Origin: Escherichia coli 042
GTDB lineage: Bacteria; Pseudomonadota; Gammaproteobacteria; Enterobacterales; Enterobacteriaceae
Assembly (NCBI RefSeq): GCF_000027125.1
Contig: NC_017626.1
Length of the DNA: 64,000 nucleotides
Direction: 5' to 3' (one strand)
A program made the translations under genes and the position numbers. Below the pieces are notes generated by a model. That model was given only the letters and a program-made list of their open reading frames with translations, was not told where the DNA came from and searched no databases. Shown piece by piece: positions 1,958-36,831 of the stretch; position 1 is the first letter of the stretch, and each line of letters starts with the position of its first letter.

Positions 1958-1959
1958 GA

Positions 1960-2627: not shown

Positions 2628-4013
2628 ATGCTAAAAATCTTCAATACTCTGACACGCCAAAAAGAGGAATTTAAGCCTATTCACGCCGGGGAAGTCGGCA
2701 TGTACGTGTGTGGAATCACCGTTTACGATCTCTGTCATATCGGTCACGGGCGTACCTTTGTTGCCTTTGACGTGGTTGCGCGCTATCTGCGTTTCCTCGG
2801 CTATAAGCTGAAGTATGTGCGCAACATTACTGATATCGACGACAAAATCATCAAACGCGCCAATGAAAATGGCGAAAGCTTTGTGGCGCTGGTGGATCGC
2901 ATGATTGCCGAAATGCACAAAGATTTTGATGCTTTGAACATTCTGCGCCCGGATATGGAGCCGCGCGCGACGCACCATATCGCAGAAATTATTGAACTCA
3001 CTGAACAACTGATCGCCAAAGGTCACGCTTATGTGGCGGACAACGGCGACGTGATGTTTGACGTACCGACCGATCCGACATATGGCGTGCTGTCGCGTCA
3101 GGATCTCGACCAGCTGCAGGCCGGCGCGCGCGTTGACGTGGTCGACGACAAACGCAACCCGATGGACTTCGTTCTGTGGAAGATGTCGAAAGAGGGCGAA
3201 CCGAGCTGGCCGTCGCCGTGGGGCGCGGGCCGTCCAGGCTGGCACATTGAATGTTCGGCAATGAACTGCAAGCAGCTGGGTAACCACTTTGATATCCACG
3301 GCGGCGGTTCTGACCTGATGTTCCCACACCACGAAAACGAAATCGCTCAGTCCACCTGTGCTCATGATGGCCAGTATGTGAACTACTGGATGCACTCGGG
3401 GATGGTGATGGTTGACCGCGAGAAGATGTCCAAATCGCTGGGTAACTTCTTTACCGTGCGCGATGTGCTGAAATACTACGACGCGGAAACCGTGCGTTAC
3501 TTCCTGATGTCGGGCCACTATCGCAGCCAGCTTAACTATAGCGAAGAGAACCTGAAGCAGGCGCGTGCGGCGCTGGAGCGTCTCTACACTGCGCTGCGCG
3601 GCACAGATAAAACCGTTGCGCCTGCCGGTGGCGAAGCGTTTGAAGCGCGCTTTATTGAAGCGATGGACGACGATTTCAACACCCCGGAAGCCTATTCCGT
3701 GCTGTTTGATATGGCGCGTGAAGTGAACCGTCTGAAAGCAGAAGATATGGCAGCGGCGAATGCAATGGCATCTCACCTGCGTAAACTTTCCGCTGTATTG
3801 GGCCTGCTGGAGCAAGAACCGGAAGCGTTCCTGCAAAGCGGCGCGCAGGCAGACGACAGCGAAGTGGCTGAGATTGAAGCGTTAATTCAACAGCGTCTGG
3901 ATGCCCGTAAAGCGAAAGACTGGGCGGCGGCAGATGCGGCGCGTGACCGTCTTAACGAGATGGGGATCGTGCTGGAAGATGGCCCGCAAGGGACCACCTG
4001 GCGTCGTAAGTAA
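2628..4013 (+). CDS. cysS: cysteine--tRNA ligase
   Basis: 461 aa ORF with class I aaRS HIGH motif (CHIGHGR) and KMSKS motif. Confidence 0.95.
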
Positions 4014-4023
4014 TTGCGCTATT

Positions 4024-4050
4024 GCCGGATGCGAGTTTTCGCATCCGGTT
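4024..4050. terminator. GC-rich hairpin between convergent cysS and ybcI (possible bidirectional terminator)
   Basis: Inverted repeat gccggatgcg...cgcatccgg read directly from sequence; coordinates approximate. Confidence 0.4.
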
Positions 4051-4570
4051 ATCGTCTGCGCCACCACAACATTCCCATCAGTAGCATCCCCGGCAACCAC
4101 ACCCACATCAATTCAGAAATAATCACCTGATGCCCGTACGGCGTGGTGTAACGAGACAATGCAAACGGCGCGACTTTAATCACCTGCCAGGGAGCGAAAA
4201 AGCGTTCATCTGACCACGGCCACAGCCAGCCAACGCCCTTACCACCAGTGGTTACCGCATCCAGCAAGCTGTGCGATAACAACGAGACGGTTAAAAACAG
4301 CCAGCAGCGAATCAGCCCAGCCCTGAACCATCGACGTCCAATCAGCACACATAACAGCGGGACAACAAACGCAAACACCAGCGAATGGGTAAACCCGCGA
4401 TGACCAAAAACATTGCCGTAAGCAACGCCAAATTTAAACGACAATACGTCGGCATCGGGCAGCATCGCCAGGATGATTCCGGCAAATAACAGGCGCGGAG
4501 GGATGACTTTCGAACCCAACCCTAAAGCAATGCAAAGGGGAACGGCTGCGTGCGTAATAACGGTTGGCAT
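4049..4570 (-). CDS. ybcI: inner membrane protein YbcI (DUF457 family)
   Basis: 173 aa hydrophobic ORF in conserved position after cysS. Confidence 0.85.
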   Translation of the reverse strand: MPTVITHAAVPLCIALGLGSKVIPPRLLFAGIILAMLPDADVLSFKFGVAYGNVFGHRGFTHSLVFAFVVPLLCVLIGRRWFRAGLIRCWLFLTVSLLSHSLLDAVTTGGKGVGWLWPWSDERFFAPWQVIKVAPFALSRYTTPYGHQVIISELMWVWLPGMLLMGMLWWRRR

Positions 4571-4677
4571 GATGGTCGCTTCGGCAAAATGTCGATGCTA
4601 TCAGCATGGATGAACGGGGCGTAGAGGGCAAAAGTCTGAAAAGAGAACCGGCCTGTTGTTACAGGCCGGGAAAGGGA

Positions 4678-4890
4678 TCAGGCAACAACCTGTACGCTGT
4701 GACCGGCAAAACTCACTGTCTGCCCGGCAACGATTTTGCAGCGTTTGCGCGTTTCAACCGCACCGTCGACTTTCACCTGGCCTTCGGCAATCGCGATTTT
4801 CGCCTGCGCGCCGCTTTCGCTCCAGCCTTCCAGTTTCAGCAAGTCGCACAGCTCAACGTGCGGATGTTTACCTAAAGAAAATGTCGCCAT
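4678..4890 (-). CDS. ybcJ: S4-like RNA-binding protein YbcJ
   Basis: ORF 4678..4944 trimmed to MATFSLGKHPHVELCDLLK start (70 aa); sits just upstream of folD on the same strand. Confidence 0.85.
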   Translation of the reverse strand: MATFSLGKHPHVELCDLLKLEGWSESGAQAKIAIAEGQVKVDGAVETRKRCKIVAGQTVSFAGHSVQVVA

Positions 4891-4891
4891 G

Positions 4892-5758
4892 TTACTCACC
4901 CTGTGGATCATGATATTCAACGCACGCCTGTAGCGTGTTTTCAATTAGCGTGGCAACCGTCATCGGGCCAACGCCGCCGGGAACAGGCGTAATGTATGAG
5001 GCGCGTTTAGCCGCGTCTTCAAACACGACGTCGCCCACAACTTTGCCATTTTCCAGACGGTTGATGCCGACATCAATCACAATTGCGCCTTCTTTGATCC
5101 AGTCACCGGGAATAAAGCCTGGCTTACCGACGGCAACGATCAATAGATCGGCATTTTCTACGTGGTGACGCAGATTTTTAGTGAAACGGTGAGTCACGGT
5201 GGTGGTGCAACCTGCCAGTAGCAGTTCCATGCTCATCGGGCGGCCAACGATATTCGATGCGCCAATCACCACGGCGTTGAGGCCGAAGGTATCAATGTTG
5301 TAACGCTCAAGCAGCGTGACAATACCGCGCGGGGTGCAGGGACGCAGACGCGGCGCGCGCTGGCACAGGCGACCGACGTTATAAGGATGGAAACCGTCTA
5401 CGTCTTTGTCCGGGTGAATTCGTTCCAGCACTTTGACGTTATCAATACCCGCCGGTAACGGCAGTTGAACCAGAATGCCATCGATGGTGTTGTCGGCATT
5501 CAGCGTATCGATAAGCTCCAGCAGCTCCGCTTCGCTGGTGGTTTCCGGGAGGTCGTAAGAGCGGGAGACGAACCCGACTTCTTCACAAGCCTTGCGTTTG
5601 CTTGCGACATAAATTTGCGATGCAGGGTTACTACCCACCAGCACAACGGCCAGTCCTGGTGCCCGCAGTCCGGCTGCAATACGCGCCTGAACTTTTTGAG
5701 CAACTTCAGAGCGCACCTGCTGCGCAATCGTTTTACCGTCAATAATCTTTGCTGCCAT
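4892..5758 (-). CDS. folD: bifunctional methylenetetrahydrofolate dehydrogenase / methenyl-THF cyclohydrolase FolD
   Basis: 288 aa ORF, FolD family sequence. Confidence 0.95.
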
Positions 5759-6228
5759 CAGAGAGAGGATTCCATCTGTTACGTAGGTCGAAGGGGATGC
5801 GCCTATTTTGTCAGAAGCGGGGCGCGCTGTCAGGTTTCGTTTCAGATTTATCGCGTGAAGCGACCTCGTGCGAAGGTGAGGCGCACTGTCGCTGAGATTG
5901 AAAGCTTCATTTTTCGTCCATGATGGCGTTGTAAATCTGGAACTGACTTATTTCCTTGTCAAAGGATTAAGATAATTTAAGAAATACCTGACAATATAAA
6001 AAGAATTTTCAGCCTGGTAATTTACCGCTTCAGGTCTATATTTGTGTTGAATATATTTTGCGCGGAAGTATTCATCTAACGGGGCTCTCTATTTTTTAGA
6101 ATAGAGTGCATATTTTCAATTAAGACATTCTTAGAGGATAAAAAGGAATTTACTACTATCAGTGTCTTAAATAAAGTAATCGGTTATATACGGATGTGGA
6201 GTCGATAAATGAGATTGAAGGAATATAT

Positions 6229-6771
6229 ATGAAATTAAGATTTATTTCGTCTGCGCTGGCCGCCGCACTATTCGCCGCTACGGGTAGTTATGCTGCCGTT
6301 GTAGATGGCGGTACAATTCACTTTGAAGGCGAACTGGTGAATGCTGCCTGTTCAGTGAATACTGACTCGGCAGACCAGGTTGTCACACTCGGTCAATATC
6401 GTACCGATATTTTCAATGCTGTTGGTAATACCTCTGCATTAATTCCATTCACTATACAGTTGAACGACTGCGATCCTGTCGTTGCCGCTAATGCTGCCGT
6501 TGCATTTTCTGGTCAGGCGGATGCAATCAATGATAATTTATTGGCCATTGCATCCAGTACTAATACAACAACAGCAACGGGTGTCGGTATTGAAATACTT
6601 GATAATACATCCGCAATTCTCAAACCTGATGGGAATAGCTTCTCAACCAACCAGAACTTGATCCCCGGGACCAACGTTCTTCATTTTTCTGCACGTTATA
6701 AAGGCACCGGTACAAGTGCATCAGCAGGGCAAGCAAATGCTGACGCGACTTTTATTATGAGATACGAATAA
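6229..6771 (+). CDS. sfmA: type 1-like fimbrial major subunit SfmA
   Basis: ORF 6196..6771 trimmed to [22 protein letters not shown] signal peptide; fimbrial subunit with conserved Cys pair. Confidence 0.85.
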
Positions 6772-6990
6772 TCAAAACCACGTTGTTTTGAATTATATAT
6801 CACGTCTTATAACAAAGTAATGTACCGGTTGTCTGAAGCGGTATGGTGGCAATGTAAATCGAAATCATATTCACTTTGTATCATGCCGCTTTATTAAATG
6901 AAAAGGGAATGATGTGTTGTAAGAAACCAAAGCAATCATTTCTTTATACTCCTTATTTTTGCCGTCAGGAATACACAAGGCGTATTAACT

Positions 6991-7683
6991 ATGATGACTA
7001 AAATAAAGTTATTGATGCTCATTATATTTTATTTAATCATTTCGGCCAGCGCCCATGCTGCCGGAGGGATCGCATTAGGTGCCACGCGTATTATTTATCC
7101 CGCTGATGCTAAACAGACTGCGGTATGGATTAGAAATAGCCATACCAATGAGCGCTTTCTGGTCAATTCGTGGATTGAAAACAGCAGCGGTGTAAAAGAA
7201 AAGTCATTCATCATTACACCGCCACTGTTTGTTAGTGAACCCAAAAGCGAAAATACTTTGCGTATTATTTACACCGGTCCACCGCTGGCGGCAGATCGTG
7301 AGTCTCTGTTCTGGATGAATGTTAAGACGATCCCTTCGGTAGATAAAAATGCATTGAACGGCAGGAATGTTTTGCAACTGGCGATTTTATCGCGCATGAA
7401 ATTATTTCTCCGTCCAATTCAATTACAAGAATTACCCGCAGAAGCGCCGGACACACTCAAGTTTTCGCGATCCGGTAACTATATCAATGTTCATAATCCA
7501 TCACCTTTTTATGTCACCCTGGTTAACTTGCAAGTGGGCAGCCAAAAACTGGGGAATGCTATGGCTGCACCCAGAGTTAATTCACAAATTCCCTTACCCT
7601 CAGGAGTGCAGGGAAAGCTGAAATTTCAGACCGTTAATGATTATGGTTCAGTAACCCCGGTCAGAGAAGTGAACTTAAACTAA
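6991..7683 (+). CDS. sfmC: periplasmic fimbrial chaperone SfmC
   Basis: 230 aa ORF with signal peptide; PapD-like chaperone sequence. Confidence 0.85.
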
Positions 7684-7713
7684 CCGAATCATCTGACAAT
7701 ATCAGAGCTAATT

Positions 7714-10323
7714 ATGAAAATACCCACTACTACGGATATTCCGCAGAGGTATACCTGGTGTCTGGCCGGAATTTGTTATTCATCTCTTGCCATTTTACCC
7801 TCCTTTTTAAGCTATGCGGAAAGTTATTTCAACCCGGCATTTTTATTAGAGAATGGCACATCCGTTGCTGATTTATCGCGCTTTGAGAGAGGTAATCATC
7901 AACCTGCGGGCGTGTATCGGGTGGATCTCTGGCGTAATGATGAGTTCATTGGTTCACAGGATATCGTATTTGAATCGACGACAGTAAATACAGGTGATAA
8001 ATCAGGTGGGTTAATGCCTTGTTTTAATCAGGCACTCCTTGAACGAATTGGCCTTAATAGCAGTGCATTCCCCGAGTTAGCCCAGCAGCAAAATAATAAA
8101 TGCATTAATTTACTGAAAGCTGTACCTGATGCCACAATTAACTTTGATTTTGCAGCGATGCGCCTGAACATCACTATTCCTCAGATAGCGTTGTTGAGTA
8201 GCGCTCACGGTTACATTCCGCCTGAAGAGTGGGATGAAGGTATTCCTGCTTTACTCCTGAATTATAATTTCACCGGTAACAGAGGTAATGGTAACGATAG
8301 CTATTTTTTTAGTGAACTCAGCGGGATTAATATTGGCCCGTGGCGTTTACGCAACAATGGTTCCTGGAACTATTTTCGCGGAAATGGATATCATTCAGAA
8401 CAGTGGAATAATATTGGCACCTGGGTACAGCGCGCCATTATTCCGCTGAAAAGTGAACTGGTAATGGGAGACGGTAATACAGGGAGTGATATTTTCGATG
8501 GCGTCGGATTTCGAGGTGTACGGCTTTATTCTTCCGATAATATGTATCCTGATAGCCAGCAAGGGTTTGCCCCAACGGTACGTGGGATTGCCCGTACGGC
8601 GGCCCAGCTAACGATTCGGCAAAATGGTTTTATTATCTATCAAAGCTATGTTTCCCCCGGCGCTTTTGAAATTACAGATTTACACCCGACATCTTCAAAT
8701 GGCGATCTGGACGTCACCATCGACGAGCGCGATGGTAATCAGCAGAATTACACTATTCCGTATTCGACAGTGCCAATTTTACAACGCGAAGGGCGTTTCA
8801 AATTTGACCTGACGGCGGGTGATTTTCGTAGCGGTAATAGTCAGCAATCGTCGCCTTTCTTTTTTCAGGGCACGGCACTCGGCGGTTTACCACAGGAATT
8901 TACTGCCTACGGCGGGACGCAATTATCTGCAAATTACACCGCCTTTTTGTTAGGGTTGGGGCGCAACCTCGGGAACTGGGGCGCAGTGTCGCTGGATGTA
9001 ACGCATGCGCGCAGTCAGTTAGCCGACGACAGTCGTCATGAGGGGGATTCCATTCGCTTCCTCTATGCGAAATCAATGAACACTTTCGGCACCAATTTTC
9101 AGTTAATGGGTTACCGCTATTCGACACAAGGTTTTTATACCCTTGATGATGTTGCGTATCGTCGAATGGAGGGGTACGAATATGATTACGATTATGACGG
9201 TGAGCATCGCGATGAACCGATAATCGTGAATTACCACAATTTACGCTTTAGCCGTAAAGACCGTTTGCAGTTAAATATTTCACAATCACTTAATGACTTT
9301 GGCTCGCTTTATATCTCTGGTACCCATCAAAAATACTGGAATACTTCGGATTCAGATACCTGGTATCAGGTGGGGTATACCAGCAGCTGGGTTGGCATCA
9401 GTTATTCACTCTCATTTTCGTGGAATGAATCTGTAGGGATCCCCGATAACGAACGTATTGTCGGACTTAATGTTTCAGTGCCTTTCAATGTTCTGACCAA
9501 ACGTCGCTACACCCGGGAAAATGCGCTCGACCGCGCTTATGCCTCCTTTAACGCCAACCGTAACAGCAACGGGCAAAATAGCTGGCTGGCAGGCGTTGGT
9601 GGGACCTTACTGGAAGGCCACAACCTGAGTTATCACGTAAGCCAAGGCGATACCTCGAATAATGGGTATACGGGCAGCGCCACGGCAAACTGGCAGGCCG
9701 CTTACGGTACGCTGGGGGTCGGGTATAACTACGACCGCGATCAACATGACGTTAACTGGCAGCTGTCTGGCGGTGTGGTCGGGCATGAAAATGGTATAAC
9801 GCTGAGCCAGCCTTTAGGGGATACCAATGTTTTGATTAAAGCGCCAGGCGCAGGCGGTGTACGCATTGAAAATCAAACTGGAATTTTAACCGACTGGCGC
9901 GGCTATGCGGTGATGCCGTATGCCACGGTTTATCGGTATAACCGTATCGCGCTTGATACCAATACGATGGGGAATTCCATCGATGTTGAAAAAAATATTA
10001 GCAGCGTTGTGCCGACGCAAGGCGCGTTGGTTCGTGCCAATTTTGATACCCGCATAGGCGTGCGGGCGCTCATTACCGTTACCCAGGGCGGAAAACCGGT
10101 GCCGTTTGGATCACTGGTACGGGAAAACAGTACCGGAATAACCAGTATGGTGGGTGATGACGGGCAAGTTTATTTAAGCGGTGCGCCATTGTCTGGTGAA
10201 TTACTGGTTCAGTGGGGAGACGGCGCGAACTCACGCTGCATTGCGCACTATGTATTGCCGAAGCAAAGATTACAGCAAGCCGTCACTGTTATTTCGGCAG
10301 TTTGCACACATCCTGGCTCATAA
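7714..10323 (+). CDS. sfmD: fimbrial outer membrane usher SfmD
   Basis: 869 aa ORF, usher family, in chaperone-usher operon context. Confidence 0.9.
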
Positions 10324-10335
10324 AGGAAATTATCA

Positions 10336-11343
10336 ATGAAGATAATCTGCAGATTATTATTGGCAATGGCATGTTTGTGTCTGGCAAACATATCCTGGGC
10401 TACTGTTTGTGCAAATAGTACTGGCGTAGCAGAAGATGAACACTATGATCTCTCAAATGTCTTTAATAGCACCAATAACCAGCCAGGGCAGATTGTTGTT
10501 TTACCGGAAAAATCCGGCTGGGTAGGTGTATCAGCAATTTGTCCACCCGGCACGCTGGTGAATTATACATACCGTAGTTATGTCACCAACTTTATTGTTC
10601 AGGAAACTATCGATAATTATAAATATATGCAATTAAATGATTATCTATTAGGTGCGATGAGTCTGGTTGATAGCGTGATGGATATTCAATTCCCTCCGCA
10701 AAATTATATTCGTATGGGAACAGATCCTAACGTTTCGCAAAACCTTCCGTTCGGGGTGATGGATTCTCGTTTGATATTTCGTTTAAAGGTTATTCGTCCC
10801 TTTATTAACATGGTGGAGATCCCCAGACAGGTGATGTTTACCGTGTATGTGACATCAACGCCTAACGATCCGTTGGTTACACCTGTTTATACCATTAGTT
10901 TTGGTGGCCGGGTTGAAGTACCGCAAAACTGCGAATTAAATGCCGGGCAAATTGTTGAATTTGATTTTGGTGATATCGGCGCATCGTTATTTAGTGCGGC
11001 AGGGCCGGGGAATCGACCAGCTGGTGTCATGCCGCAAACCAAGAGCATTGCGATCAAATGTACGAATGTTGCTGCGCAGGCTTATTTAATAATGCGTCTG
11101 GAAGCCAGTGCCGTTTCTGGTCAGGCGATGGTGTCGGACAATCAGGATTTAGGTTTTATTGTGGCCGATCAGAACGATACGCCGATCACGCCTAACGATC
11201 TCAATAGCGTTATTCCTTTCCGTCTGGATGCAGCTGCGGCAGCCAATGTCACACTTCGCGCCTGGCCTATCAGTATTACCGGTCAAAAACCGACCGAAGG
11301 GCCGTTTAGCGCGCTGGGGTATTTACGCGTCGATTATCAATGA
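10336..11343 (+). CDS. sfmH: fimbrial minor subunit / adhesin-like SfmH
   Basis: 335 aa ORF with signal peptide following the usher gene. Confidence 0.8.
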   Translation: MKIICRLLLAMACLCLANISWATVCANSTGVAEDEHYDLSNVFNSTNNQPGQIVVLPEKSGWVGVSAICPPGTLVNYTYRSYVTNFIVQETIDNYKYMQLNDYLLGAMSLVDSVMDIQFPPQNYIRMGTDPNVSQNLPFGVMDSRLIFRLKVIRPFINMVEIPRQVMFTVYVTSTPNDPLVTPVYTISFGGRVEVPQNCELNAGQIVEFDFGDIGASLFSAAGPGNRPAGVMPQTKSIAIKCTNVAAQAYLIMRLEASAVSGQAMVSDNQDLGFIVADQNDTPITPNDLNSVIPFRLDAAAAANVTLRAWPISITGQKPTEGPFSALGYLRVDYQ

Positions 11344-11353
11344 GGTACGGAGA

Positions 11354-11869
11354 ATGAGAAGAGTACTTTTTAGCTGTTTCTGCGGGCTACTGTGGAGTTC
11401 CAGTGGATGGGCAGTTGACCCTTTAGGAACGATTAATATCAATTTGCACGGTAACGTTGTTGATTTCTCCTGTACCGTAAACACAGCGGATAAGGATAAG
11501 ACGGTAGATTTAGGCAGATGGCCTACGACACAATTACTGAGCGCTGGCGATACCACGGCACTCGTCCCTTTTAGCCTGCGGCTGGAGGGATGTCCTCCGG
11601 GTTCAGTTGCGATTTTATTTACGGGAACGCCGGCATCTGATGCCAACCTGCTGGCTTTGGATGATCCCGCAATGGCACAAACCGTCGCCATCGAATTACG
11701 TAATAGCGATCGCTCCCGGCTCGCACTGGGGGAGGCGAGCCCGACTGAGGAAGTAGATGCAAATGGCAATGTCACACTAAACTTTTTTGCCAATTATCGA
11801 GCGTTAGCCAGCGGTGTTCAGCCAGGTGTGGCGAAAGCGGATGCGATATTTATGATCAATTATAATTAA
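11354..11869 (+). CDS. sfmF: fimbrial minor subunit SfmF
   Basis: ORF 11159..11869 trimmed to internal ATG (MRRVLFSCFCGLLWSSSGWA signal peptide); fimbrial subunit. Confidence 0.8.
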   Translation: MRRVLFSCFCGLLWSSSGWAVDPLGTININLHGNVVDFSCTVNTADKDKTVDLGRWPTTQLLSAGDTTALVPFSLRLEGCPPGSVAILFTGTPASDANLLALDDPAMAQTVAIELRNSDRSRLALGEASPTEEVDANGNVTLNFFANYRALASGVQPGVAKADAIFMINYN

Positions 11870-11871
11870 TA

Positions 11872-12504
11872 TTATATTAATTCATATAATTTGGCATAGT
11901 CGATAAGCTCTACAATTGAATGCAAACCTAGCTTGCCATAAATATTAGATTTATGCGCACTAACTGTTTTATTGCTAAGTAATAACTTATCGGCAATTTC
12001 TTTATTGGATAATCCGCTAACCAGATAACGTAATATGGTCACTTCACGATTAGATAGCACCGTGACCGTTGAACTATTCGTACTGCATTTATTGCTTTTT
12101 ATATAGTTGAGCGTTTCGCTGGGGAAAAAAGTGTATCCGGAGAGGATCATCTGAACGGCGTGAAAAATATCATTTTGATCATTGCATTTACTGACAAAAC
12201 CGTTAGCACCAGCTTGTATCGCTCTGCCAGCATAAAAGCATTCTGATTTCGATGATAAAAATAATACTTTCACTGTGCTCTGGATTTGTTTGATCCTTTT
12301 CAGGAAGGTAAAACCGTCTGTTCCGGGCAAGTCTATATCCATAATGATTAAATCAACAGGACGGGTTCGGAGATAATCGATGGTTATGCGATAATCATCC
12401 GTTTTCAGGACAATTTGCAATTCATTGTTTTTTTGCAACAGAACTTCAATAGACATTCTGATGATAGGATGAGTATCCATAATGATCACCGACGTTGGTT
12501 TCAT
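11872..12504 (-). CDS. fimZ: LuxR/FixJ-family response regulator FimZ
   Basis: ORF 11872..12567 trimmed to MKPTSVIIMDTHPI start (210 aa); receiver domain plus C-terminal LuxR-type HTH. Confidence 0.85.
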   Translation of the reverse strand: MKPTSVIIMDTHPIIRMSIEVLLQKNNELQIVLKTDDYRITIDYLRTRPVDLIIMDIDLPGTDGFTFLKRIKQIQSTVKVLFLSSKSECFYAGRAIQAGANGFVSKCNDQNDIFHAVQMILSGYTFFPSETLNYIKSNKCSTNSSTVTVLSNREVTILRYLVSGLSNKEIADKLLLSNKTVSAHKSNIYGKLGLHSIVELIDYAKLYELI

Positions 12505-12746
12505 AGTTACCAGTCTCATTGGATCGGACAATTTTCCGTTAGGGCGGGAAATTGTACTTTGATACATGAAAATACGGGTTTTCTTGATTCAGACGCGCAG
12601 CGATGTGCGTTTGTTTGCCGCTATAGCGAAATAAATCAGAAAATCAGACGCGGTCGTTCACTTGTTCAGCAACCAGATCAAAAGCCATTGACTCAGCAAG
12701 GGTTGACCGTATAATTCACGCGATTACACCGCATTGCGGTATCAAC

Positions 12747-12823
12747 GCGCCCTTAGCTCAGTTGGATAGAGCAACGACCTTCTAAGTCGTGGGCCGCAGG
12801 TTCGAATCCTGCAGGGCGCGCCA
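12747..12823 (+). tRNA. argU: tRNA-Arg (anticodon UCU)
   Basis: 77 nt sequence gcgcccttagctcagttggatagagcaacgaccttctaagtcg...ttcgaatcctgcagggcgcgcca with acceptor stem, D-loop, UCU anticodon loop, T-loop and CCA. Confidence 0.9.
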
Positions 12824-12868
12824 TTTCTTCTTCATTTATCCCCGTCTTATCCGTTTCCGCTTTGCCCT

Positions 12869-13630
12869 TCACCACATCACTTTTTGTCGCTGTTTGGCGA
12901 GATAATTCAACGGTGTCAGGCCGTAAAACGCCTTAAAAACAGAGATAAAGTACGACGTGCTGCTATAGCCACATAATTGCGCTACCTGAGTGATATTTTT
13001 GTTATCCATCAATAACATCTGTACGGCGTAACGCATACGACACTCTGTGACAATCTGGCTATAGCTGGTATTTTCGTTTTTTAATTTCTTTTTGAGCAGG
13101 CTGGGGCTTAAACATAGCGAACTGGCGACAATTCGCAGATTCCAGTAATGCTGAATATCGCTTTGAATAATGCGGCAGACGCTGTCGCGGACGCTGCTGC
13201 GTAAGATATACATCAGTAGGGCAATAAACCGCGATTGCTCAAGAAAGTTAGACAATACGGTAAAAAGCAATGCGCGCGTCAACTCCGCTTCGCAGGGTTT
13301 GCTGGGTTGCTGCTTGCTGTGGTTGGCGGCTAGCCGGAACACTTCCGGTGTACGGCTATGACAAGCGATAACCGGGGTTGCCAGCCGCGACCAGGGCTTT
13401 ACACAGGTTAAGTTCTTATTTAAAAACAACAGATAATCGTTGATGATGTTGCGGTTGATGTGGGTGATTAATACGTGATTTAACGTTGAGAGTTCAATGA
13501 CGTTATTGTTGCACGCGAAGGCGGCCAGGTAATTTTTCGGAAGGGTAAACGTGGCATGGTTATTGACGCTTACCTCTACCTCTTTTTCGGTCAGGATCAC
13601 CACGCAAGGTTCACTGCTGCTCAATTGCAT
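12869..13630 (-). CDS. envY: AraC-family transcriptional regulator, EnvY-like
   Basis: 253 aa ORF with C-terminal AraC-type HTH; length and position upstream of ybcH-nfrA match envY. Confidence 0.75.
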   Translation of the reverse strand: MQLSSSEPCVVILTEKEVEVSVNNHATFTLPKNYLAAFACNNNVIELSTLNHVLITHINRNIINDYLLFLNKNLTCVKPWSRLATPVIACHSRTPEVFRLAANHSKQQPSKPCEAELTRALLFTVLSNFLEQSRFIALLMYILRSSVRDSVCRIIQSDIQHYWNLRIVASSLCLSPSLLKKKLKNENTSYSQIVTECRMRYAVQMLLMDNKNITQVAQLCGYSSTSYFISVFKAFYGLTPLNYLAKQRQKVMW

Positions 13631-13812
13631 TTCGCACTCCTCAGATATCAGAAACTCCGCTCAAAGGATCTATGCTTCCTGCATGAGTGATCGGCCCGTT
13701 CGCCGATAACGATCTTCTTTCTTTAGCACGCTTTTTAGCAATTAATCTTGATGGAATTCTGACGAGAGCGAAAGAGGTAAGCCAGGTCGTACCCGACTTA
13801 CCTGGAGGAGAT

Positions 13813-14703
13813 TTAATACTCGAGAATGCCGTGCGCAACGGGCAAATAGCGCAGAGAGAAATAGAGCGTGTCTTTACCGCAAGAGGAACGTTTCGCTAAC
13901 AGCGAGGCGATCTCTGCATCCGGTTTCGGTTTCGCTGTAAAGGTTTTACCTTTGCCGGCGACAAACAGTTCATAAACAATGCCGCTGGCAGGGGCGGAAC
14001 TTTGGCAATCGGCGCTGGCCTGTAGATAACGTTCACGCTGTTCAGCGGTAAGTTTATTCACGCCGCTGCCATCCTGTACCCAGACATTAACGCCGGTTGT
14101 TTTAACTTGTTCCAGCAGTTGGCGATAGCCATCGGGCGACATGTTTCCGGCGAAAAAACTACTGATATAAACCGGTTTTGCTGAAACATCGCTAATCAAC
14201 CGCTGCGCGTTGTTTAACCATGTCAGCAACGGTTGACGGGCGGCTTCGCTGCGCCAGTTCAGGTCGTCAATTTCCGCGCTGATGTACCAGCCATCCGGCG
14301 TTACGCCAGGCGCGGCGCTCCATAATCTGGCTTGCTGGAGATCGGCAGCCAGCAGGCGATTAAGATAGCTTTCCAGCGCCGCGGATGACTGTTTCTGGTG
14401 CATAAAAAATTCCGGATCGGCATTCAGCCCGACAATCAGCTTCAGGCCAGCCTGTTGCGCAGCTGCTGCACGCTTAAACAATAACGCGCGCTGTTCTGGC
14501 TGGGTGAATGCATCGCCGTAACGGGTCCATTGCAAAACCAGGGTATCGAAGCCTTGCAAACGTAACTGACTCATCAGCCCCTGCCACTGGGTATCGGTAA
14601 CCTGACTATCACGGTTTTGTGGTTGCCAGATAATACCTTTCATCGCAAAGGAAAAAGGGCTGACCAAAAGCAGTGTCAGCAATACGAAAATGAACTTACG
14701 CAT
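13813..14703 (-). CDS. ybcH: periplasmic protein YbcH (nfrA-associated)
   Basis: 296 aa ORF with signal peptide immediately downstream of nfrA on the same strand. Confidence 0.8.
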   Translation of the reverse strand: MRKFIFVLLTLLLVSPFSFAMKGIIWQPQNRDSQVTDTQWQGLMSQLRLQGFDTLVLQWTRYGDAFTQPEQRALLFKRAAAAQQAGLKLIVGLNADPEFFMHQKQSSAALESYLNRLLAADLQQARLWSAAPGVTPDGWYISAEIDDLNWRSEAARQPLLTWLNNAQRLISDVSAKPVYISSFFAGNMSPDGYRQLLEQVKTTGVNVWVQDGSGVNKLTAEQRERYLQASADCQSSAPASGIVYELFVAGKGKTFTAKPKPDAEIASLLAKRSSCGKDTLYFSLRYLPVAHGILEY

Positions 14704-17676
14704 TTACCAGTGCACTCCAATGGTGAGAAACGCGTTGTTGCGCTCTCCGTTACGTTGATTAATTGCCTTAAAGGTATGTTGATACTCGACGCCGAGACTG
14801 ACTTTGTGCGGCCAGGCGTCGTAGTGCGTCTCGCCGGTCCAGATATTCCAGCGGACCCCGACACCGCCAAGCTGCGCGCCCTGAGTGCCTTTATCACGAT
14901 AACCGTTGTCCTGAACGTGAGCGTAAGGCTCAATAGTCTGTCCGTTCGCCACCTTCTGATGCCAGCTGACGCGATAATCTGCCGTCCACGCCTGAATATC
15001 CTGGCGGACATATTGCGCCGCATCGAGGTACAGGTTTTGGGCAAACCAGCCTGAACCGTTCGGGTGCCATTCATCGCTGTATTTGCCGCCATTAAAGAAT
15101 GAGGCGCTGGCGCGCAGCATGGTATCGGATGCGCCATTTTGCCCGTTCAGCGGCAACTGCTGTTCGACGGCGAGGAAAAAGATCTGATCGCGCAGCGGCT
15201 TCCAGCGCAGACCGGTGCCGGACATCGGATTTTTCACCGGCATCATCACCCCGTTTTCTCCGGTATCGGCAAATACACGGCTGTAAACCGAGAGCAGGTC
15301 GCCTTCCAGCAGCATATTGCGTCCGATGCGGTACTCGGCTTCCAGTTGCCCGTAGCTACGATAGCTTTTCCCTGGCGCTGCGCCGCCGACATTATTGTTA
15401 GCGGTACTCATCGCGCCGGAACGCAAGCCGATGGAAGAATCGAAACTGAACGTCCAGCGGCGACCGACCTCCTCATGCAGACGGCGGAAATTGAAGCGTT
15501 GCTGATTTTGCTCTGGGGTCAGTGGGGTTATCAGCGCCTGATTATCAATGTCATCAATCACCAGCCGGGCGTAGTGCTGCGTCGCAGGCATGTCATCCAG
15601 ACGCTGGTTCACGTAGGCCAGTTGTCGGATAAGTGCCGGATCGTCCGGTAGCCCTTTATGCGCCTGTTCGAGCATTTCCCGCGACTGTGCGATATCACCG
15701 CTATCCCACAAGGCGTAACCGAGCGCTGCCTGGGTGTTGCTATTATTCGGCTCCAGTTCCAGCGCGGCGCGCAAATCACTCACTGCCGCTGGGACATTAT
15801 GACGTTGGCGATAAATTGTCGCCCGCGCAACGTAAGCGTTGGCAGAAGGCGCAATATTGATTGAGCGCGTGAGATCGTTCAGTGCGAGTTCCGGCTGACC
15901 AGGAATGTAACGTTGCGCATGCAGCCACCAGTAGAGGGCATTGTTTCCCAGCCCACGTTGTTCTGCCTGCTGAAGCCAGCGATCGCGAGCCGCACCATTT
16001 CCTGCCGCCTGGGCGGTATTGGCAGCAGCAAGCAGATCCTCATTGCTCATGTCGTGAAGACTGATTTTCTGCCAGGCCGCCAGTGCGGTGGCGTAGTCCT
16101 CAACCTGATACGCTTGATAGGCTACCGCACGATGTTGCCAGGCGTTCGGTTGTCGTTGTTCGGCCTGAAGCCATGCATACAACGCCACACCGGGTAGCGT
16201 GTCCCGATAACACTTTGCCAGACGGTTCCAGGCGGCGGCATCGTAGGAAGGCGACATATCGCCCAGCAAGCGAACTATTGCCGGGCAATTATCTGCAATA
16301 CCCGGCAACTGACTTTGCCACTGACGTTGCTCCGCCAGCGGTAAGGGTTTCGATAAAATCGCCACCTTCGCCGGCGTTGCCAGGTAAGGATGACTTTCCA
16401 GCAGAGACGCCAGTCGCGCCATTAAAGTCTGGCTGACACGCGCATCGCCCTGGAAAGGATAGCGTTGCAGCAATAAATCGGCAGCTTCGCGTGACTGCTC
16501 GTTCTGCATCAGTTGCCAGGTCAGTTGATCCAGGCGGGTAAGATTTGCCGGTTCTTGCTGATACAGCAATCGTGCCAGACGCAGAGCTTCAGCCTTGTTA
16601 TGGGTCGCTACGCTAACGGTATAACGCTCCTCAAGCATTTCATTGGCGGGGAGGGTGGCGAGCAGTTTTTGCGCTGCGTCGTACTGACCTTCTTTTAACA
16701 GCACCGGTAGCGTCGCGCCAACAACATACTGGCGGTTGTCGGCAAACTGTACCGTATAATTCGCCAACGCCTGAACGGGGTTGCCGCTGTATTTAGATAA
16801 CAGATAGAGCCAACTTTTCTCTTGTGCGTCCGTGGTAAATAGCGGAGTATTTTCAATGAGATAACGCTGGAGGCGTGCTTTTTCGTCACGATAAGCCAGC
16901 GCGGTCGCGTAAGTAATATATGACTGCGGATCGGTGAAGATCCCCTGTGATTGCAGCGCCAGGATCCGATCGTCCAGCTGCCCGGCAAGAAGCACATCAA
17001 ACCACTGGCGGCGTTCTGCCGCGCTTAATGTGTTCTGCTGGCGTGCTTCATTGTATAGCGTATCTGCCTGGGACCATTGCTTCAGGTAGATTGCCCGTTG
17101 CAGCAGATCGGTTCGCAGCGTTTTTCCTTCCGGCGATGCAGCAAACGTCGCATCGTTCAGTTGCGCTCTGGCGACAGGTAATTGTGCCAGCCGCAGGGCA
17201 TTCTGCCCAACTTCACTGCGACAACGCAGGGTCGGCGCAGCATCGCACGCTTTTTGCTGGGCAAGCAGTTCTTCAACTGTCGTAACGCTTTTCACTTCAA
17301 CTGGAATAGCCGCCAGACTGCGCTCAAGTCGGGCATCTCCTGGGTGACGTTTCAGTTGATCCTCAAGCAACAGCCGCGCCCGGTCATCATGACCAAAATA
17401 GCGATAGGCTTCCGCAAGGTATAAAGCCAGCGGAATATTATCCGGCACCTGCTGGTGTATATATTCAAATTCGCGGATGGCGGTTGCTTCGTCGTTATTT
17501 TTCTGTGCCTTCAGCGCCTTATCGAGACGGGGATAAATAACAAAATGGCGATAATCGCTCAGCCCCAGCTCTTCTGCGCTGGTGCCGATATTGTCTGCGA
17601 GTGCGCTGGTACTCAATAAAGACGTCAGCAGTAAACCAGACCATCCGATGACGCGATTAAGGTTATTCTCCTTCAT
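14704..17676 (-). CDS. nfrA: outer membrane TPR-repeat protein NfrA (phage N4 adsorption protein A)
   Basis: ORF 14704..17697; likely start MKENNLNRVIGWSGLLL (990 aa); TPR-rich N-terminal part and beta-rich C-terminus ending in F/W. Confidence 0.85.
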   Translation of the reverse strand: MKENNLNRVIGWSGLLLTSLLSTSALADNIGTSAEELGLSDYRHFVIYPRLDKALKAQKNNDEATAIREFEYIHQQVPDNIPLALYLAEAYRYFGHDDRARLLLEDQLKRHPGDARLERSLAAIPVEVKSVTTVEELLAQQKACDAAPTLRCRSEVGQNALRLAQLPVARAQLNDATFAASPEGKTLRTDLLQRAIYLKQWSQADTLYNEARQQNTLSAAERRQWFDVLLAGQLDDRILALQSQGIFTDPQSYITYATALAYRDEKARLQRYLIENTPLFTTDAQEKSWLYLLSKYSGNPVQALANYTVQFADNRQYVVGATLPVLLKEGQYDAAQKLLATLPANEMLEERYTVSVATHNKAEALRLARLLYQQEPANLTRLDQLTWQLMQNEQSREAADLLLQRYPFQGDARVSQTLMARLASLLESHPYLATPAKVAILSKPLPLAEQRQWQSQLPGIADNCPAIVRLLGDMSPSYDAAAWNRLAKCYRDTLPGVALYAWLQAEQRQPNAWQHRAVAYQAYQVEDYATALAAWQKISLHDMSNEDLLAAANTAQAAGNGAARDRWLQQAEQRGLGNNALYWWLHAQRYIPGQPELALNDLTRSINIAPSANAYVARATIYRQRHNVPAAVSDLRAALELEPNNSNTQAALGYALWDSGDIAQSREMLEQAHKGLPDDPALIRQLAYVNQRLDDMPATQHYARLVIDDIDNQALITPLTPEQNQQRFNFRRLHEEVGRRWTFSFDSSIGLRSGAMSTANNNVGGAAPGKSYRSYGQLEAEYRIGRNMLLEGDLLSVYSRVFADTGENGVMMPVKNPMSGTGLRWKPLRDQIFFLAVEQQLPLNGQNGASDTMLRASASFFNGGKYSDEWHPNGSGWFAQNLYLDAAQYVRQDIQAWTADYRVSWHQKVANGQTIEPYAHVQDNGYRDKGTQGAQLGGVGVRWNIWTGETHYDAWPHKVSLGVEYQHTFKAINQRNGERNNAFLTIGVHW

Positions 17677-19900
17677 TTTCGGACTCCAGTTGCGCAACCT
17701 GTTCTGTGTTTAAACCTGCTTTGAGTAATAGTGATTGCATCGAAACTTGTAATTCGCGTTGAATTGTCAGGACGCGATCCAACGTTTCCTGGCTGATAAC
17801 GCCTTCGGTGACCAAAAACTTGCCGAGCGGCAGAGAACTGCGTTCATGGCGCAATAACAACACGTTAATTGCTGAACGATTAATATGACCGAGCGTGGTC
17901 AGTATTTCGGCGAACAGGAACTGATGCGGCACATATTGCCGCCAGATTTCACCGGCCTGCTGTTCCGTGAGCCACTGATGCTGAACCGCATTGTACAACA
18001 TTGCCCGCGGATCGTGACCGCGTCGGCGCGCATACCAGTGGCGTAACCCCGTGACAATTTGTCCCCGCAGAACAATGACGTAACGCACTTTGCGTCCGAC
18101 TTTACGCGTCAGGGCCGCCAGCGAAACCGGGTCAATACCATCTTCACTGCCGACAATTAACTCATCATTTTCCAGACGCAGCGGCAGCACTGCATAATGC
18201 AGCGCCACGGAGGCCGGCATTTCGGCAATCAGTGATGAAGGGATCTGCCAGGCGTCGATCGACTCCCACGCCACGCCGTTTTGCTCTGCCAGCGCCTGTG
18301 CCAGCTGTTCGGCGCTAATCAGCCCCTGCATCAGCATTGAACCGCCCAGGCGTAGACCTTCGACGCGATTACGCAGTGCTGTATCGAGTTGTTCTTCAGT
18401 GATGACCTGATTTTCCAGCAGGATTTGACCTAACGGACGCAACGAGCGGGTATCGCCAGTCACGCTGGGGAAGTCATGCGTTGTTTTATCCCACGCGACA
18501 CGACGTGGATCGCCGTGTTGAAGTACCTGTTTTAACGCGCGCCAGTTGGCCATGAAGTTAATCAGGTTGCCCCAGAAAAGACGCAGGACAGATAGCAGCC
18601 CCTGCGTCAGGCCGTAGTAGCCAGTAACGAAAATCACCCGCTGCACGATGCGGTTAATCATCAAGCCAAAGTTTAGCCACAGCAGAGTCATTAACCATGC
18701 GCTGCCGCTGAAAATAGAAAGGAAATGCCAGGCATCGGGCCACAAACTTTCATACGCCAGCAACAGCAAAAGCTGGATCATCACCAGCATCGCGAGGAAG
18801 CTGACAAAGTTACTGATTGCCCCTTTGCGGTCGCGCCAGAGAAAGTAGTTCAGCGTCAGACTGGAGGTCCATTTGTGGGTTTTAAAGCCCTGGAAAACAA
18901 TGCCGATGATCCAGCGAGATTTTTGTCGAACCGCAGTCGAAAAGGTATCGGGGAAATATTCGCGCACGCAGATCATGTTTGACGTCCGCGCGTGCTGTAA
19001 AAATTTACGCTGCTCGCGTTCTTTGGCTTCGTCCACCACCGGAAAACGGACAAAAATTTCCGTCATACCTTTTTCTTTCAGGCGGAAACCAATGTCGTAA
19101 TCTTCAGTAAGACTCTGCACGTCGAAAGCAATACCATCACCGTCAGCTAACAGTGCGGTCACGGCGCGGCGGCTGAAACAAGTACCGACGCCTGCGCTGG
19201 GCACCTGTCCGGCGAGGGCTTCACGCACCGGAACATCTTTGCCATGCAGTTCTGAAAACTCATCAATGTAAGTCATGCTGGTGAAGTGCGTCCATTCGCG
19301 TTCGAATGGGTATACCGGGATCTGAATCAGATCTTTACGCTCGACCAGATAGTTGAACAGACGCAATTCCATCGGTGAAATTACGTCTTCGGCGTCATGC
19401 AGAATAAAACCAGCAAAAGCGAAATTGGCGCTACGCTCAAACTGGGTGATGGCGTCCAGCACGTTGTTCAGGCAGTCGGCTTTGCTGGTGGGGCCAGGAC
19501 GCGCGCAGACTACCTTATGCACGTTTGGGAAGCGAGCGCACACTTCGTCAACATCACGCTGAGTATCGGGGTCGTTGGGGTAGGTGCCAACAAAGATATG
19601 ATAGTTTTCATAGTCGAGCGTGGTCGCCGCCAGCTCGGCCATATTGCCGATGACGCCCGTTTCATTCCACGCCGGAACCATAATCGCTAACGGTTTTTCA
19701 TCTGGTTTATACAGTTCGCGGTAACTCATTCGCGGGTAGCGGCGATAAACACTCAACTTGCGTTTAATGCGGCGTACCCAGTAGACGACATCAATAAAAA
19801 AATCGTCCAGCCCGCTGATGAACATGATGACCGCTAACGTTATCGCGATTACTTTTAAGCCGTAGAGCCAGGTAGCAAAAACATCAAGAAGCCAGTCCAC
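17663..19900 (-). CDS. nfrB: inner membrane glycosyltransferase NfrB (phage N4 adsorption protein B)
   Basis: 745 aa ORF, family-2 glycosyltransferase-like N-terminal region with TM segments; overlaps nfrA start. Confidence 0.9.
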   Translation of the reverse strand: MDWLLDVFATWLYGLKVIAITLAVIMFISGLDDFFIDVVYWVRRIKRKLSVYRRYPRMSYRELYKPDEKPLAIMVPAWNETGVIGNMAELAATTLDYENYHIFVGTYPNDPDTQRDVDEVCARFPNVHKVVCARPGPTSKADCLNNVLDAITQFERSANFAFAGFILHDAEDVISPMELRLFNYLVERKDLIQIPVYPFEREWTHFTSMTYIDEFSELHGKDVPVREALAGQVPSAGVGTCFSRRAVTALLADGDGIAFDVQSLTEDYDIGFRLKEKGMTEIFVRFPVVDEAKEREQRKFLQHARTSNMICVREYFPDTFSTAVRQKSRWIIGIVFQGFKTHKWTSSLTLNYFLWRDRKGAISNFVSFLAMLVMIQLLLLLAYESLWPDAWHFLSIFSGSAWLMTLLWLNFGLMINRIVQRVIFVTGYYGLTQGLLSVLRLFWGNLINFMANWRALKQVLQHGDPRRVAWDKTTHDFPSVTGDTRSLRPLGQILLENQVITEEQLDTALRNRVEGLRLGGSMLMQGLISAEQLAQALAEQNGVAWESIDAWQIPSSLIAEMPASVALHYAVLPLRLENDELIVGSEDGIDPVSLAALTRKVGRKVRYVIVLRGQIVTGLRHWYARRRGHDPRAMLYNAVQHQWLTEQQAGEIWRQYVPHQFLFAEILTTLGHINRSAINVLLLRHERSSLPLGKFLVTEGVISQETLDRVLTIQRELQVSMQSLLLKAGLNTEQVAQLESENEGE

Positions 19901-20236
19901 ACAAAAACCTTACATTAACGCTGGTTATGTTTAGGGTGGCGTATATTAAGGTTTTTTATGAATTGTGACAGCTTTTTACCATTAATAGGTATGACTATTG
20001 CGGCACGTTATTTTTACACTGGTTATAAAAGTTGCCGTTTGCGTAGAATGTAGACAAAAGCGTGGTGTCAAGGAGGGGCGGTAAACGTCATAGTGAAGAG
20101 GAGTGGTGGCACCGATCAGGTCATCATGTAGTGTAAGCGTCTGGAGGAGGTGAGCAGGGGAGATCATTTTCCCCGTGCTGAACAAAAAGACGGCGTTGCT
20201 GTGGGTACAGGAAGGCTAACTTCATTTCTCTTTAGA

Positions 20237-20773
20237 TTATTTAAGTTTAATATTCAACCAGGAAATAAAGAACGTTAAAATAACAAAGGAAAAAACAATC
20301 AAAGAGACATTCCTGAAAAATACGTGCTCATAAAAAAGATAAAAAACGTACAAAATTGGGCACGCAACTTTCAGGACGTTTATATGTTTAGAATTCTCTT
20401 TATCTTTAAAGTTAAAATTACATAAAAATATAAAGAAATATGAAAGCATGGCTGAAAACATCATTGATAAGGCGCGATATGGCAGTCCTGAATTAAAGGT
20501 TTCGACTCCTAATAATATTGTCGATAGCGTTGCAATTATAATTGCCACTTTTTTACTAGAGGTGAAAGTAACGACAAAAAATATCAATGATATAAATAAG
20601 AAAGAAAAAAATATGTAAATATTTGTTGATATATGTACTTTATGAGGAACTGTAAAATAGGTATAACTGATTGTAATTATGATGGTAATTATTCTGTATA
20701 GCATGCATGCTAACAGGCCAATCAGTAGTTTGTTCGCAAATTTATAAGGGGATTCGCTATTGGTTGATTGCAT
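20237..20773 (-). CDS. hypothetical multi-pass membrane protein (low GC, island-borne)
   Basis: 178 aa ORF dominated by I/L/F/V stretches consistent with ~5 TM helices; strongly AT-rich codon usage unlike flanking core genes. Confidence 0.6.
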   Translation of the reverse strand: MQSTNSESPYKFANKLLIGLLACMLYRIITIIITISYTYFTVPHKVHISTNIYIFFSFLFISLIFFVVTFTSSKKVAIIIATLSTILLGVETFNSGLPYRALSMMFSAMLSYFFIFLCNFNFKDKENSKHINVLKVACPILYVFYLFYEHVFFRNVSLIVFSFVILTFFISWLNIKLK

Positions 20774-20837
20774 GGTTATTATGCTCTTGAATTGTGTATT
20801 TTATTGGAATGTTTCTTGGTTAACTAAAACAATGCAT

Positions 20838-21266
20838 TTAATAGGTGGTGGTGTAAATATCAATGTCATACTCATTATCACAGACTACTATTACTCTACG
20901 AGTTATGTCAAAAAATAACGTTAAATCATAGGTTCCCTGTTCTCTGAAAATACTCTGCGCAAATGACGTGAAATTATTCCCATTTATAACTATTTTTACT
21001 TTACCTTCATAGATAAGCCAGCAACGAAAACATTCAGCTGTACCAGATAATGTCACTATCTGACTGATTAGAAGATTTATATTTACCGGATGAGGTAAAA
21101 AAAGTCTGTCGTTGAGGCAATCAATATTATGTGTTTGATGAAACTCTTTTCTCATTAATGAAGAGTTATCATATAGCAGGGTTATACTAAACGAGTCAAT
21201 TCCGTCAAGCTTTTGCATAAATTTGTTTGCTTTATAAATAAGCAACTTTGCTTGTGTTTTTGTCAT
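20838..21266 (-). CDS. hypothetical protein (island-borne, candidate orphan immunity protein)
   Basis: 142 aa ORF, AT-rich, tightly spaced with neighbours on the same strand. Confidence 0.5.
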   Translation of the reverse strand: MTKTQAKLLIYKANKFMQKLDGIDSFSITLLYDNSSLMRKEFHQTHNIDCLNDRLFLPHPVNINLLISQIVTLSGTAECFRCWLIYEGKVKIVINGNNFTSFAQSIFREQGTYDLTLFFDITRRVIVVCDNEYDIDIYTTTY

Positions 21267-21293
21267 GATGGTGATCTTTTATGCAAGGGGGAA

Positions 21294-21740
21294 TTATTGG
21301 AATTCAAATGTTTTATATTCCTCTGTAATCATCTTTAAACTTAACATAGCCATGTCTCGGGTATCTTCATCATCAGATTGTAGAGAAATATTTAATCCTT
21401 TAATTAAGGTGTTATCGGGAAAAGCCATTGCCAATAATGTATACCAACATCGGACACTTTTTATTGTCAGAGGATTTTCCAGTATGTTGGCGATATTTGA
21501 AGCTATAATGTTTTTATCACACTTGTACAAAAAATCTTCGACCAACTGATATACACCGAAGCCATCACCTTCCCCAAACGATTGTAAAAATAACGGTATG
21601 GCTTCTTCAGCAGGATTTGCAGAAAAATAAAGCCTTACATTGTTATATTTATTGATAAGTTCCTGAGTGATGTCATAATCATTTGGCATAGGTTGGTTTA
21701 GAGCAAGGAATGCTAATGCTTCTTTTTTAGTCATATTCAT
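21294..21740 (-). CDS. hypothetical protein (island-borne, candidate orphan immunity protein)
   Basis: 148 aa ORF, AT-rich, 27 bp from upstream and downstream ORFs. Confidence 0.5.
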   Translation of the reverse strand: MNMTKKEALAFLALNQPMPNDYDITQELINKYNNVRLYFSANPAEEAIPLFLQSFGEGDGFGVYQLVEDFLYKCDKNIIASNIANILENPLTIKSVRCWYTLLAMAFPDNTLIKGLNISLQSDDEDTRDMAMLSLKMITEEYKTFEFQ

Positions 21741-21767
21741 AATGGTTAATATTGCTTGCTGGAAGAA

Positions 21768-22313
21768 TTAAGGTAAAAATGGTTCATAGACAGAATTAAA
21801 TAGGAAGTCTTGTTTCCAGATAACTTTATCATGAAAAAGAGATTTGGCTTGATGCGTATAAAGATTATGAGGATAAATAGTTTCTCCACCATAAATGATG
21901 TTCTTTCCCGTTACACCGGAGAATTCATTGGCTATAATCTGTCGTTTAAGCCAGTGAATGACTTTACATAAGCATATTAATTTATCCTTAGAATCAGTTG
22001 TGTTAATTTCAGTAAGTTGTAAAATCTTTTCCCCATTATACTCAACTAAATGCCCCGGCTTTATTTCAATTCAACCACAATAACGATCAATGCTACTAAA
22101 CTTTATTCTTCTATTGTTAGGTTTAATGCTGGGCATAAGATAAATTCGATGTGCTACGGCAGGGATCTTTTCTGTTAAGACATTTAATTGCTTAGAGTAT
22201 TCATCTTGTAGTGTAAACCAAATTGAATGTAATTTGTATTTTGAGGCTACAATCGCGAGCCAATTAGACAGTTCCTCGTTCGTGCAAAAAACATTTATCC
22301 TGGCAGTTGCCAT
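21768..22313 (-). pseudogene. hypothetical gene interrupted by an in-frame TGA (80-codon ORF plus ~100 stop-free codons in the same frame)
   Basis: ORF 22071..22313 ends at TGA; manual translation of the same frame continues IEIKPGHLVEYNGEKILQ...SVYEPFLP to a TAA at ~21768 with no start codon, which is unlikely by chance in AT-rich DNA. Confidence 0.4.
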
Positions 22314-22346
22314 TCGTAATCCTTTTTATATAAGATTGTGTGAATG

Positions 22347-22556
22347 TCACCGAAACAACTTGATATGAATAAAATAGCTAAAGCGAAATGGATGACGTGT
22401 TACTAAAAAACCATTCTGAAAAGGAAGCCTGAATAAACGCGATGACGAAACTTCCACTCTCCATGTTTCATCAGAAAAATAACTAAATTCGATGTGGTTT
22501 TCATATAATCTCATTTCACGTAAGGTTCCGCTACCATAAGGGACCGCAATCAGGGA
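22347..22556 (-). pseudogene. short remnant ORF abutting the H-repeat end (possible truncated toxin-tip coding sequence)
   Basis: 78-aa ORF 22347..22583 whose 5' end lies inside the H-rpt terminus; the equivalent position next to H-rpt copy 2 holds a toxin-domain fragment. Confidence 0.25.
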
Positions 22557-36820: not shown

Positions 36821-36831
36821 GGGAATAACCA

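Follow-up and report, generated by a model that had tools for sequence, protein, structure and literature searches.

The junction between argU and envY in the 64-kb window, the whole stretch of DNA analysed here, can be assigned with high confidence as an unoccupied attB site (BOB′) for DLP12-type lambdoid phages, lying inside argU and spanning positions 12747–12869. The site is organized around a 47-bp att core (O) that starts two bases before the anticodon and ends two bases past argU. Five-way alignment of the window, K-12 attL, K-12 attR and the attP sequences of phages 2G7b and Kati reveals 47 invariant columns, a length that agrees with that of attR in the passage of PMC6379469 describing it, there citing Lindsey et al. 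1989. On the left, the arm of the window (the 5′ half of argU) is that of attL. On the right, it aligns with the right arm of K-12 attR, with two mismatches in the first 25 nt, and gives no alignment with the int-side arm of attL and attP. The same pattern, attL on the left and attR on the right, holds against the CB6837 lysogen, and no scar is present at the argU–envY junction. In the terms of the Campbell scheme, the five-way alignment places the phages as POP′, K-12 attL as BOP′, K-12 attR as POB′ and the window as BOB′. With up to 3 mismatches allowed, a search for the last 25 nt of argU finds a single site in the window (0 expected by chance), so there is no second att copy. The original prediction had taken this junction for an unoccupied attachment site and proposed its alignment to the K-12 argU–intD and ompT–envY junctions; that alignment returns a shared core of 47 bp in one copy and bears the reading out, the junction being an exact recombinant of the attL left arm and the attR right arm of K-12.

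The tRNA gene that houses the site is intact and is the only one in the 64 kb. ARAGORN, run over the whole window, identifies a single tRNA-Arg(TCT), and the Rfam tRNA model (RF00005) scores 72 bits at the same coordinates (Table 1). The gene is identical to K-12 argU across the aligned gene. It is convergent with envY, whose 253-aa reading frame shares 99.6% identity with K-12 EnvY over its full length; genomes that are 100% identical across the junction carry the envY annotation as well. Exactly 45 bp (12824..12868) separate the last argU base from the envY stop codon, in agreement with the predicted direct succession of the two genes at a distance of about 45 bp. The surroundings are chromosomal on both sides, with fimZ and the sfm fimbrial operon to the left of argU and ybcH, nfrA and nfrB to the right of envY. 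Strain 266917_2, which is 100% identical to the window over 12300–13700, carries a PGAP-annotated fimZ at coordinates matching those given for the window, and the window match is indel-free through this part. Downstream of argU, a sequence scan found no terminator-like site; between argU and envY there is no stable structure (fold z-score 0.29), and Rfam finds the tRNA alone. On the antisense strand of argU (12747..12821, −), a sub-threshold Rfam match to the Plastid-ycf2 5′UTR RNA (34.7 bits, where the gathering score is 65.7) is almost certainly a spurious tRNA-like similarity.

Table 1. Features of the argU–envY junction and of the nfrB–cusS insertion, in window coordinates.
Feature	Coordinates	Strand	Evidence
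fimZ, LuxR-family fimbrial regulator, left chromosomal neighbour	11872..12504	-	ORF; PGAP in relative; K-12 colinearity
Promoter-like site upstream of argU: TTGACT, 16-nt spacer, TATAAT; 11/12 matches	12688..12715	+	Consensus scan, pattern match only
argU, intact tRNA-Arg(UCU), anticodon 12781..12783	12747..12823	+	ARAGORN; Rfam RF00005; K-12 alignment
47-bp att core (O), anticodon loop through argU 3′ end plus 2 nt, single copy	12779..12825	.	Alignments
Right (B′) arm of attB, chromosomal spacer to envY stop codon	12826..12868	.	Alignment to K-12 attR
envY, AraC-family regulator, right chromosomal neighbour	12869..13630	-	253-aa ORF; K-12 EnvY match
Intact ISAs1-family transposase in nfrB–cusS insertion	22561..23697		
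SUKH-3 immunity protein in nfrB–cusS insertion	24063..24524		
Two tandem 346-aa WD40/BNR-like paralogs in nfrB–cusS insertion	28679..29719, 29831..30871		

Comparison with K-12 MG1655 (548000–640000 with its annotation; K-12 560000–590000 as blastn query against the window) delimits precisely what is missing. K-12 551984..564801 aligns to window 1..12825 and K-12 586054..593320 to window 12776..20042, each at about 98.1% identity, and the two flank alignments overlap in the window by 50 bp within the core region. The absent K-12 interval measures 21.25 kb, runs from intD to ompT and lies inside the RefSeq span labelled 'cryptic prophage DLP12' (564755..586056). Apart from this interval, the window is colinear with K-12 around the junction. 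The DLP12 interior (K-12 564802..586053) has no blastn match anywhere in the 64 kb, and tblastn with IntD, OmpT, EmrE, YbcK, RusA, QuuD, RrrD, BorD, NohD and YbcL returns no match in the window better than E = 0.78. For IntD, the best tblastn match in the window has E = 6.7, and no integrase lies directly 3′ of argU. Likewise, neither search finds prophage cargo (ompT, appY, emrE, rusA or lysis genes) between argU and envY. AppY and YbcM do give tblastn matches, both falling on envY at 44% and 29% identity, respectively; they reflect AraC-family paralogy.

The DLP12 cargo (ompT, appY, emrE, nmpC, rusA and the lysis cassette) is thus missing as one unit, and ompT and appY are absent from the window because their carrier phage is absent. 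The searches uphold the claims that no integrase or phage genes occur here and that the window encodes no OmpT, a statement that covers these 64 kb, as ompT could sit elsewhere in the genome, as it does in O157:H7. A search of the window for DLP12 or ompT sequence, which the original prediction had named as a possible refutation, found none. One point requires revision. While the placement of DLP12 at the 3′ end of argU in K-12 stands, the description of ompT and appY as separate genes preceding envY does not, since both lie inside the prophage and, in intact relatives, adjoin attP. Their absence from the window accordingly counts as a single event. As judged from the sequence of the locus, no OmpT-mediated proteolysis would be expected from the argU site.

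The phages that match this site are represented by intact genomes. The 47-bp core is present at 47/47 in thirteen phage records, all of E. coli phages of about 45–50 kb, including Kati, Turner, 2G7b, ev243, PhiR26_1, PhiR29_1, PhiR29_2, PhiR30_1, PhiR49_1 and PhiR68_2, and two Salmonella phages, SEN22 and BIS08P22, carry it with 95.7% identity. The annotated gene order in 2G7b is alpha/beta hydrolase, OmpT, core, integrase, and that in Kati is a 249-aa regulator, a 317-aa protein, core, integrase. Proteins of the two phages are 99.2–99.5% identical to IntD and 98.7–99.7% identical to OmpT, with Kati additionally showing 100% identity to AppY, and in the alignment the left arm of both phages matches K-12 attR and their right arm K-12 attL. 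The near identity of their integrase to IntD makes these phages natural partners of the window attB. Phages that use the argU site are currently active, and ompT and appY are phage cargo adjoining attP.

In the integration model that fits this arrangement, a DLP12-type phage carries a tyrosine integrase beside its attP, and the 47-bp core of that attP duplicates the 3′ portion of argU. Campbell integration then places int beside a regenerated argU, forming attL, and the appY/ompT end of the map beside the displaced old argU 3′ half, forming attR, before envY. The window is the locus without this event, and argU runs straight into the spacer and envY. The site is predicted to be still integration-competent, and argU would offer a free, sequence-perfect landing site to extant ompT-carrying lambdoid phages.

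Close relatives display both states of the locus. The junction is 100% identical to that of the ST38 strains 28Eco12 and 266917_2, identity to the latter amounting to 99.07% over the first 20 kb; another strain, NMBU_W05E18, is described as ST38, phylogroup D (PMC6963479, PMC7311804). The wider haplotype of the window is closest to CB6837, A10 and GN25, and window 32000–56999 is 100% identical to CB6837, ECA64 and GN25. No complete genome matched the window along its entire length, and the window is a mosaic. A10, 2021CK-01784 and GN25 possess the same empty argU–envY junction as the window. CB6837 carries two perfect 47-bp cores 59,598 bp apart, enclosing a near-complete DLP12-like lambdoid prophage (59.6 kb) that ends in alpha/beta hydrolase–ompT before envY. 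Its right flank is 99.88% identical to the window, and the last 540 bp of its left flank are 100% identical. Empty and occupied sites in such close relatives indicate that both argU states segregate within a narrow haplotype. As a separate observation, the major capsid gene of the CB6837 prophage has been interrupted by an element of roughly 10.5 kb (27555..39151 of the retrieved locus) encoding a tyrosine integrase, an Icd-like protein, a primase, SSB, a major capsid protein, a head decoration protein and a small terminase subunit; it looks like a capsid-forming phage satellite residing inside the capsid gene of its likely helper.

Because precise excision regenerates BOB′ exactly, a site that was never occupied and one that was cured are alike in sequence, and the choice between them depends on the relatives. 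The argU site was probably unoccupied in the recent ancestry of the window, a reading favoured over curing since three other close relatives are empty and the prophage of CB6837 looks recently gained. The main alternative is a cured attB, from which a former DLP12-like prophage was lost either when Int/Xis excised it precisely or when the two 47-bp direct repeats recombined. This history is possible but on balance improbable. It draws on the nearest local haplotype found, CB6837, whose near-complete prophage between two perfect cores is an excisable configuration, on Hha-induced DLP12 excision in K-12, reported in literature as quoted in a passage of PMC4632033, and on DLP12-type remnants in distant phylogroups (K-12 in group A; ST131), which make occupancy old and widespread. 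However, precise excision is traceless and leaves no positive evidence in the window, and A10, GN25 and 2021CK-01784 are empty as well. Moreover, the prophage of CB6837 retains its full length and its cores show no decay, a picture more readily explained by recent acquisition in that strain than by the loss of an old prophage here; the old ST131 attR core, by contrast, has 5 mismatches. A narrower version, in which curing was recent and removed an active DLP12-like phage that carried ompT, like the one still resident in CB6837, is more doubtful still. If it were true, OmpT would be a mobile, phage-borne, virulence-associated trait switching on and off within a phylogroup-D-like lineage, and ompT-carrying phages with a matching attP are already in public records.

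Two further explanations of the empty junction are highly improbable next to recent non-occupancy. A non-specific deletion of DLP12 and ompT, for example an IS-mediated one of the kind seen in E. coli B/BL21 derivatives, does have precedent at this locus, as BL21-derived records retain fimZ–argU only, lacking ompT and envY. In the window, however, both chromosomal flanks are complete to the base, argU is intact and the 45-bp spacer matches the attR flank, while envY, ybcH, nfrA and nfrB are present and colinear with K-12, and no IS is present at the junction. The base precision of the flanks excludes a deletion of the BL21 type. Repeats can in principle cause misassembly, but there is no specific support for a prophage collapsed out of the assembly between 47-bp repeats, which are far too short to collapse about 20–60 kb of unique sequence, and the identical junction recurs in 2504 independently finished genomes.

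The adjacency of argU and envY is itself old, as the ST131 locus demonstrates. In ST131 (O25b:H4), the whole sfm operon and fimZ are absent and folD is followed directly by argU (17977..21607 of the retrieved locus), immediately after which lies a DLP12 stump comprising an int fragment, a tfa fragment, a methyltransferase and ompT. A diverged envY 3′ end directly follows the degenerate attR core, accompanied by the envY–ybcH intergenic region, so envY was deleted internally there. The possibility that envY is fossil cargo of an older prophage, explaining its absence from ST131, was prompted by its 44% paralogy to phage AppY, its position abutting the core and its being missing in ST131; it was rejected because ST131 keeps this envY 3′ end remnant. 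The GC content of envY (about 46%, against 52–58% for nfrA) alone proves nothing about its origin. Genome contigs were scanned for outgroup junctions with a pattern joining the core 3′ end to 6 nt of the right arm, and two loci were recovered. One, in an alphaproteobacterial MAG (999..1081), is a tRNA-Arg with 92.8% similarity to argU, a chance match to the pattern. The other is the terminal 155 bp (1..155) of a 3.5-kb contig in a Collinsella MAG, consisting of E. coli attR-type sequence (core plus envY end) at 98.7% identity, and is probably E. coli contamination of the bin.

The empty site is widespread. The 1.4-kb junction (window 12300–13700) is found unbroken in 2504 of the 5426 complete E. 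coli genomes, ATCC 8739 (Crooks) and O157:H7 included, the resulting 46% describing a complete-genome collection skewed to clinical lineages and not a population frequency. This survey answers the concern, raised with the original prediction, that envY might not adjoin argU elsewhere. The DLP12-type attL, the K-12-type argU–intD junction, is found in 1613 of the 5426 genomes when a query joining the window left flank to K-12 intD is counted at a coverage of at least 80%, and ompT is detectable in 3095 of 5426. A chimeric query of junction plus ompT, with 60 records sampled evenly down the ranking, resolves how the two combine. An empty junction occurs in 28 of the 60 records, 24 of which have no ompT on the chromosome, while the other 4 carry ompT elsewhere and are of the O157:H7 type. 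The remaining records display K-12-like ompT–envY adjacency (18/60), ompT without a detectable adjacent envY, as in ST131 (11/60), a partial ompT-side match only (1/60), or, in BL21 derivatives, neither ompT nor envY (2/60).

The sampled O157:H7 strains combine an empty argU junction with an ompT elsewhere on the chromosome. In strain TR01, an ompT 100% identical to that of K-12 lies at the tail-fibre (distal) end of another lambdoid prophage, one located near minCDE, at 14001..14954 of the retrieved locus. O157:H7 shows that ompT moves as phage cargo between integration sites. In the literature, Table 2 of PMC3032704 records no element at argU for E. coli W and Crooks, and DLP12 is scored as present in 74% of 638 strains (PMC6379469); PMC2947995 contains nothing on the argU att site. 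The empty argU site is therefore a common, already published presence/absence polymorphism and holds no new biology.

Beyond the junction, the window carries several further differences from K-12 and from its relatives. Compared with K-12, the window has an insertion of 11.5 kb between nfrB and cusS (window 20043..31586). Its features are given in Table 1, and relatives have PAAR-like and HNH/EndoVII toxin-2 genes annotated; the insertion looks like a polymorphic-toxin/immunity 'orphan' island. The ST38 strain 266917_2 has a different, VgrG–Rhs–metallopeptidase toxin island at the same spot, marking nfrB–cusS as a variable T6SS-effector hotspot. A second ISAs1 copy in the window (24702..26769) is split by IS1 at about 25204..25970 and is uninterrupted in A10 and 2021CK-01784. 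Identity to these two strains is about 99.2–99.3% to the left of IS1 (1..25203) and 99.94–99.97% to its right, which suggests a recombination boundary at IS1 (about 25200..25970); the argU region and the cus/ent region would accordingly have different histories. Further along, window 45741..46632 holds a tandem duplication whose unit of about 502 bp carries the hokE/sokE toxin–antitoxin locus, with two identical 50-aa HokE reading frames ending at 46108 and 46610. The window lacks the IS186 located after hokE in K-12, strain 266917_2 (ST38) has one copy of the unit, and TRF missed the duplication, its period being greater than 500. Finally, nfrA (14704..17697) is an intact long reading frame of 997 aa from a TTG start. 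The gene is annotated as frameshifted in 266917_2 (ST38), and IS1 truncates it in GN25.

The value of the finding is one of bookkeeping only. The empty argU site explains in one step the absence of ompT, appY, emrE and the other DLP12 genes at the locus. For typing and annotation, it means that scoring ompT, as is commonly done for an ExPEC marker, mostly reports whether a phage occupies argU and not whether a chromosomal gene has been lost.

Among known systems, the closest counterparts are E. coli Crooks (ATCC 8739) and W, which have the same arrangement as the window, with no large mobile element at argU (PMC3032704). Crooks shows a contiguous fimZ–argU–envY junction with 99.0% identity to the window. 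The backgrounds nevertheless differ, as Crooks belongs to phylogroup A and W to B1, whereas the junction allele of the window is 100% identical to that of ST38/phylogroup D strains. K-12 shares the 47-bp core and the chromosomal arms with the window, its flanks being 98.0–98.1% identical, but represents the occupied state, in which a decayed prophage of 21.25 kb is interrupted by IS3 and IS5, while the window is unoccupied. E. coli B/BL21(DE3) resembles the window in that ompT is absent at this locus; its derivatives, however, keep only fimZ–argU and have also lost envY, a deletion into the chromosome, whereas the attB of the window is intact. From the phage side, the attP of DLP12-like coliphages has the same core as the window, yet both of its arms are phage sequence, one leading to ompT and the other to int, these sequences being phage genomes and the window a chromosome. 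A further parallel is Salmonella phage epsilon34, whose attP lies in argU with a 43-bp identity to the gene and whose integrase is about 80% identical to the DLP12 integrase (PMC2629481). By the description given there, it shares the target tRNA gene and the integrase lineage, although epsilon34 is a P22-like podovirus of Salmonella.
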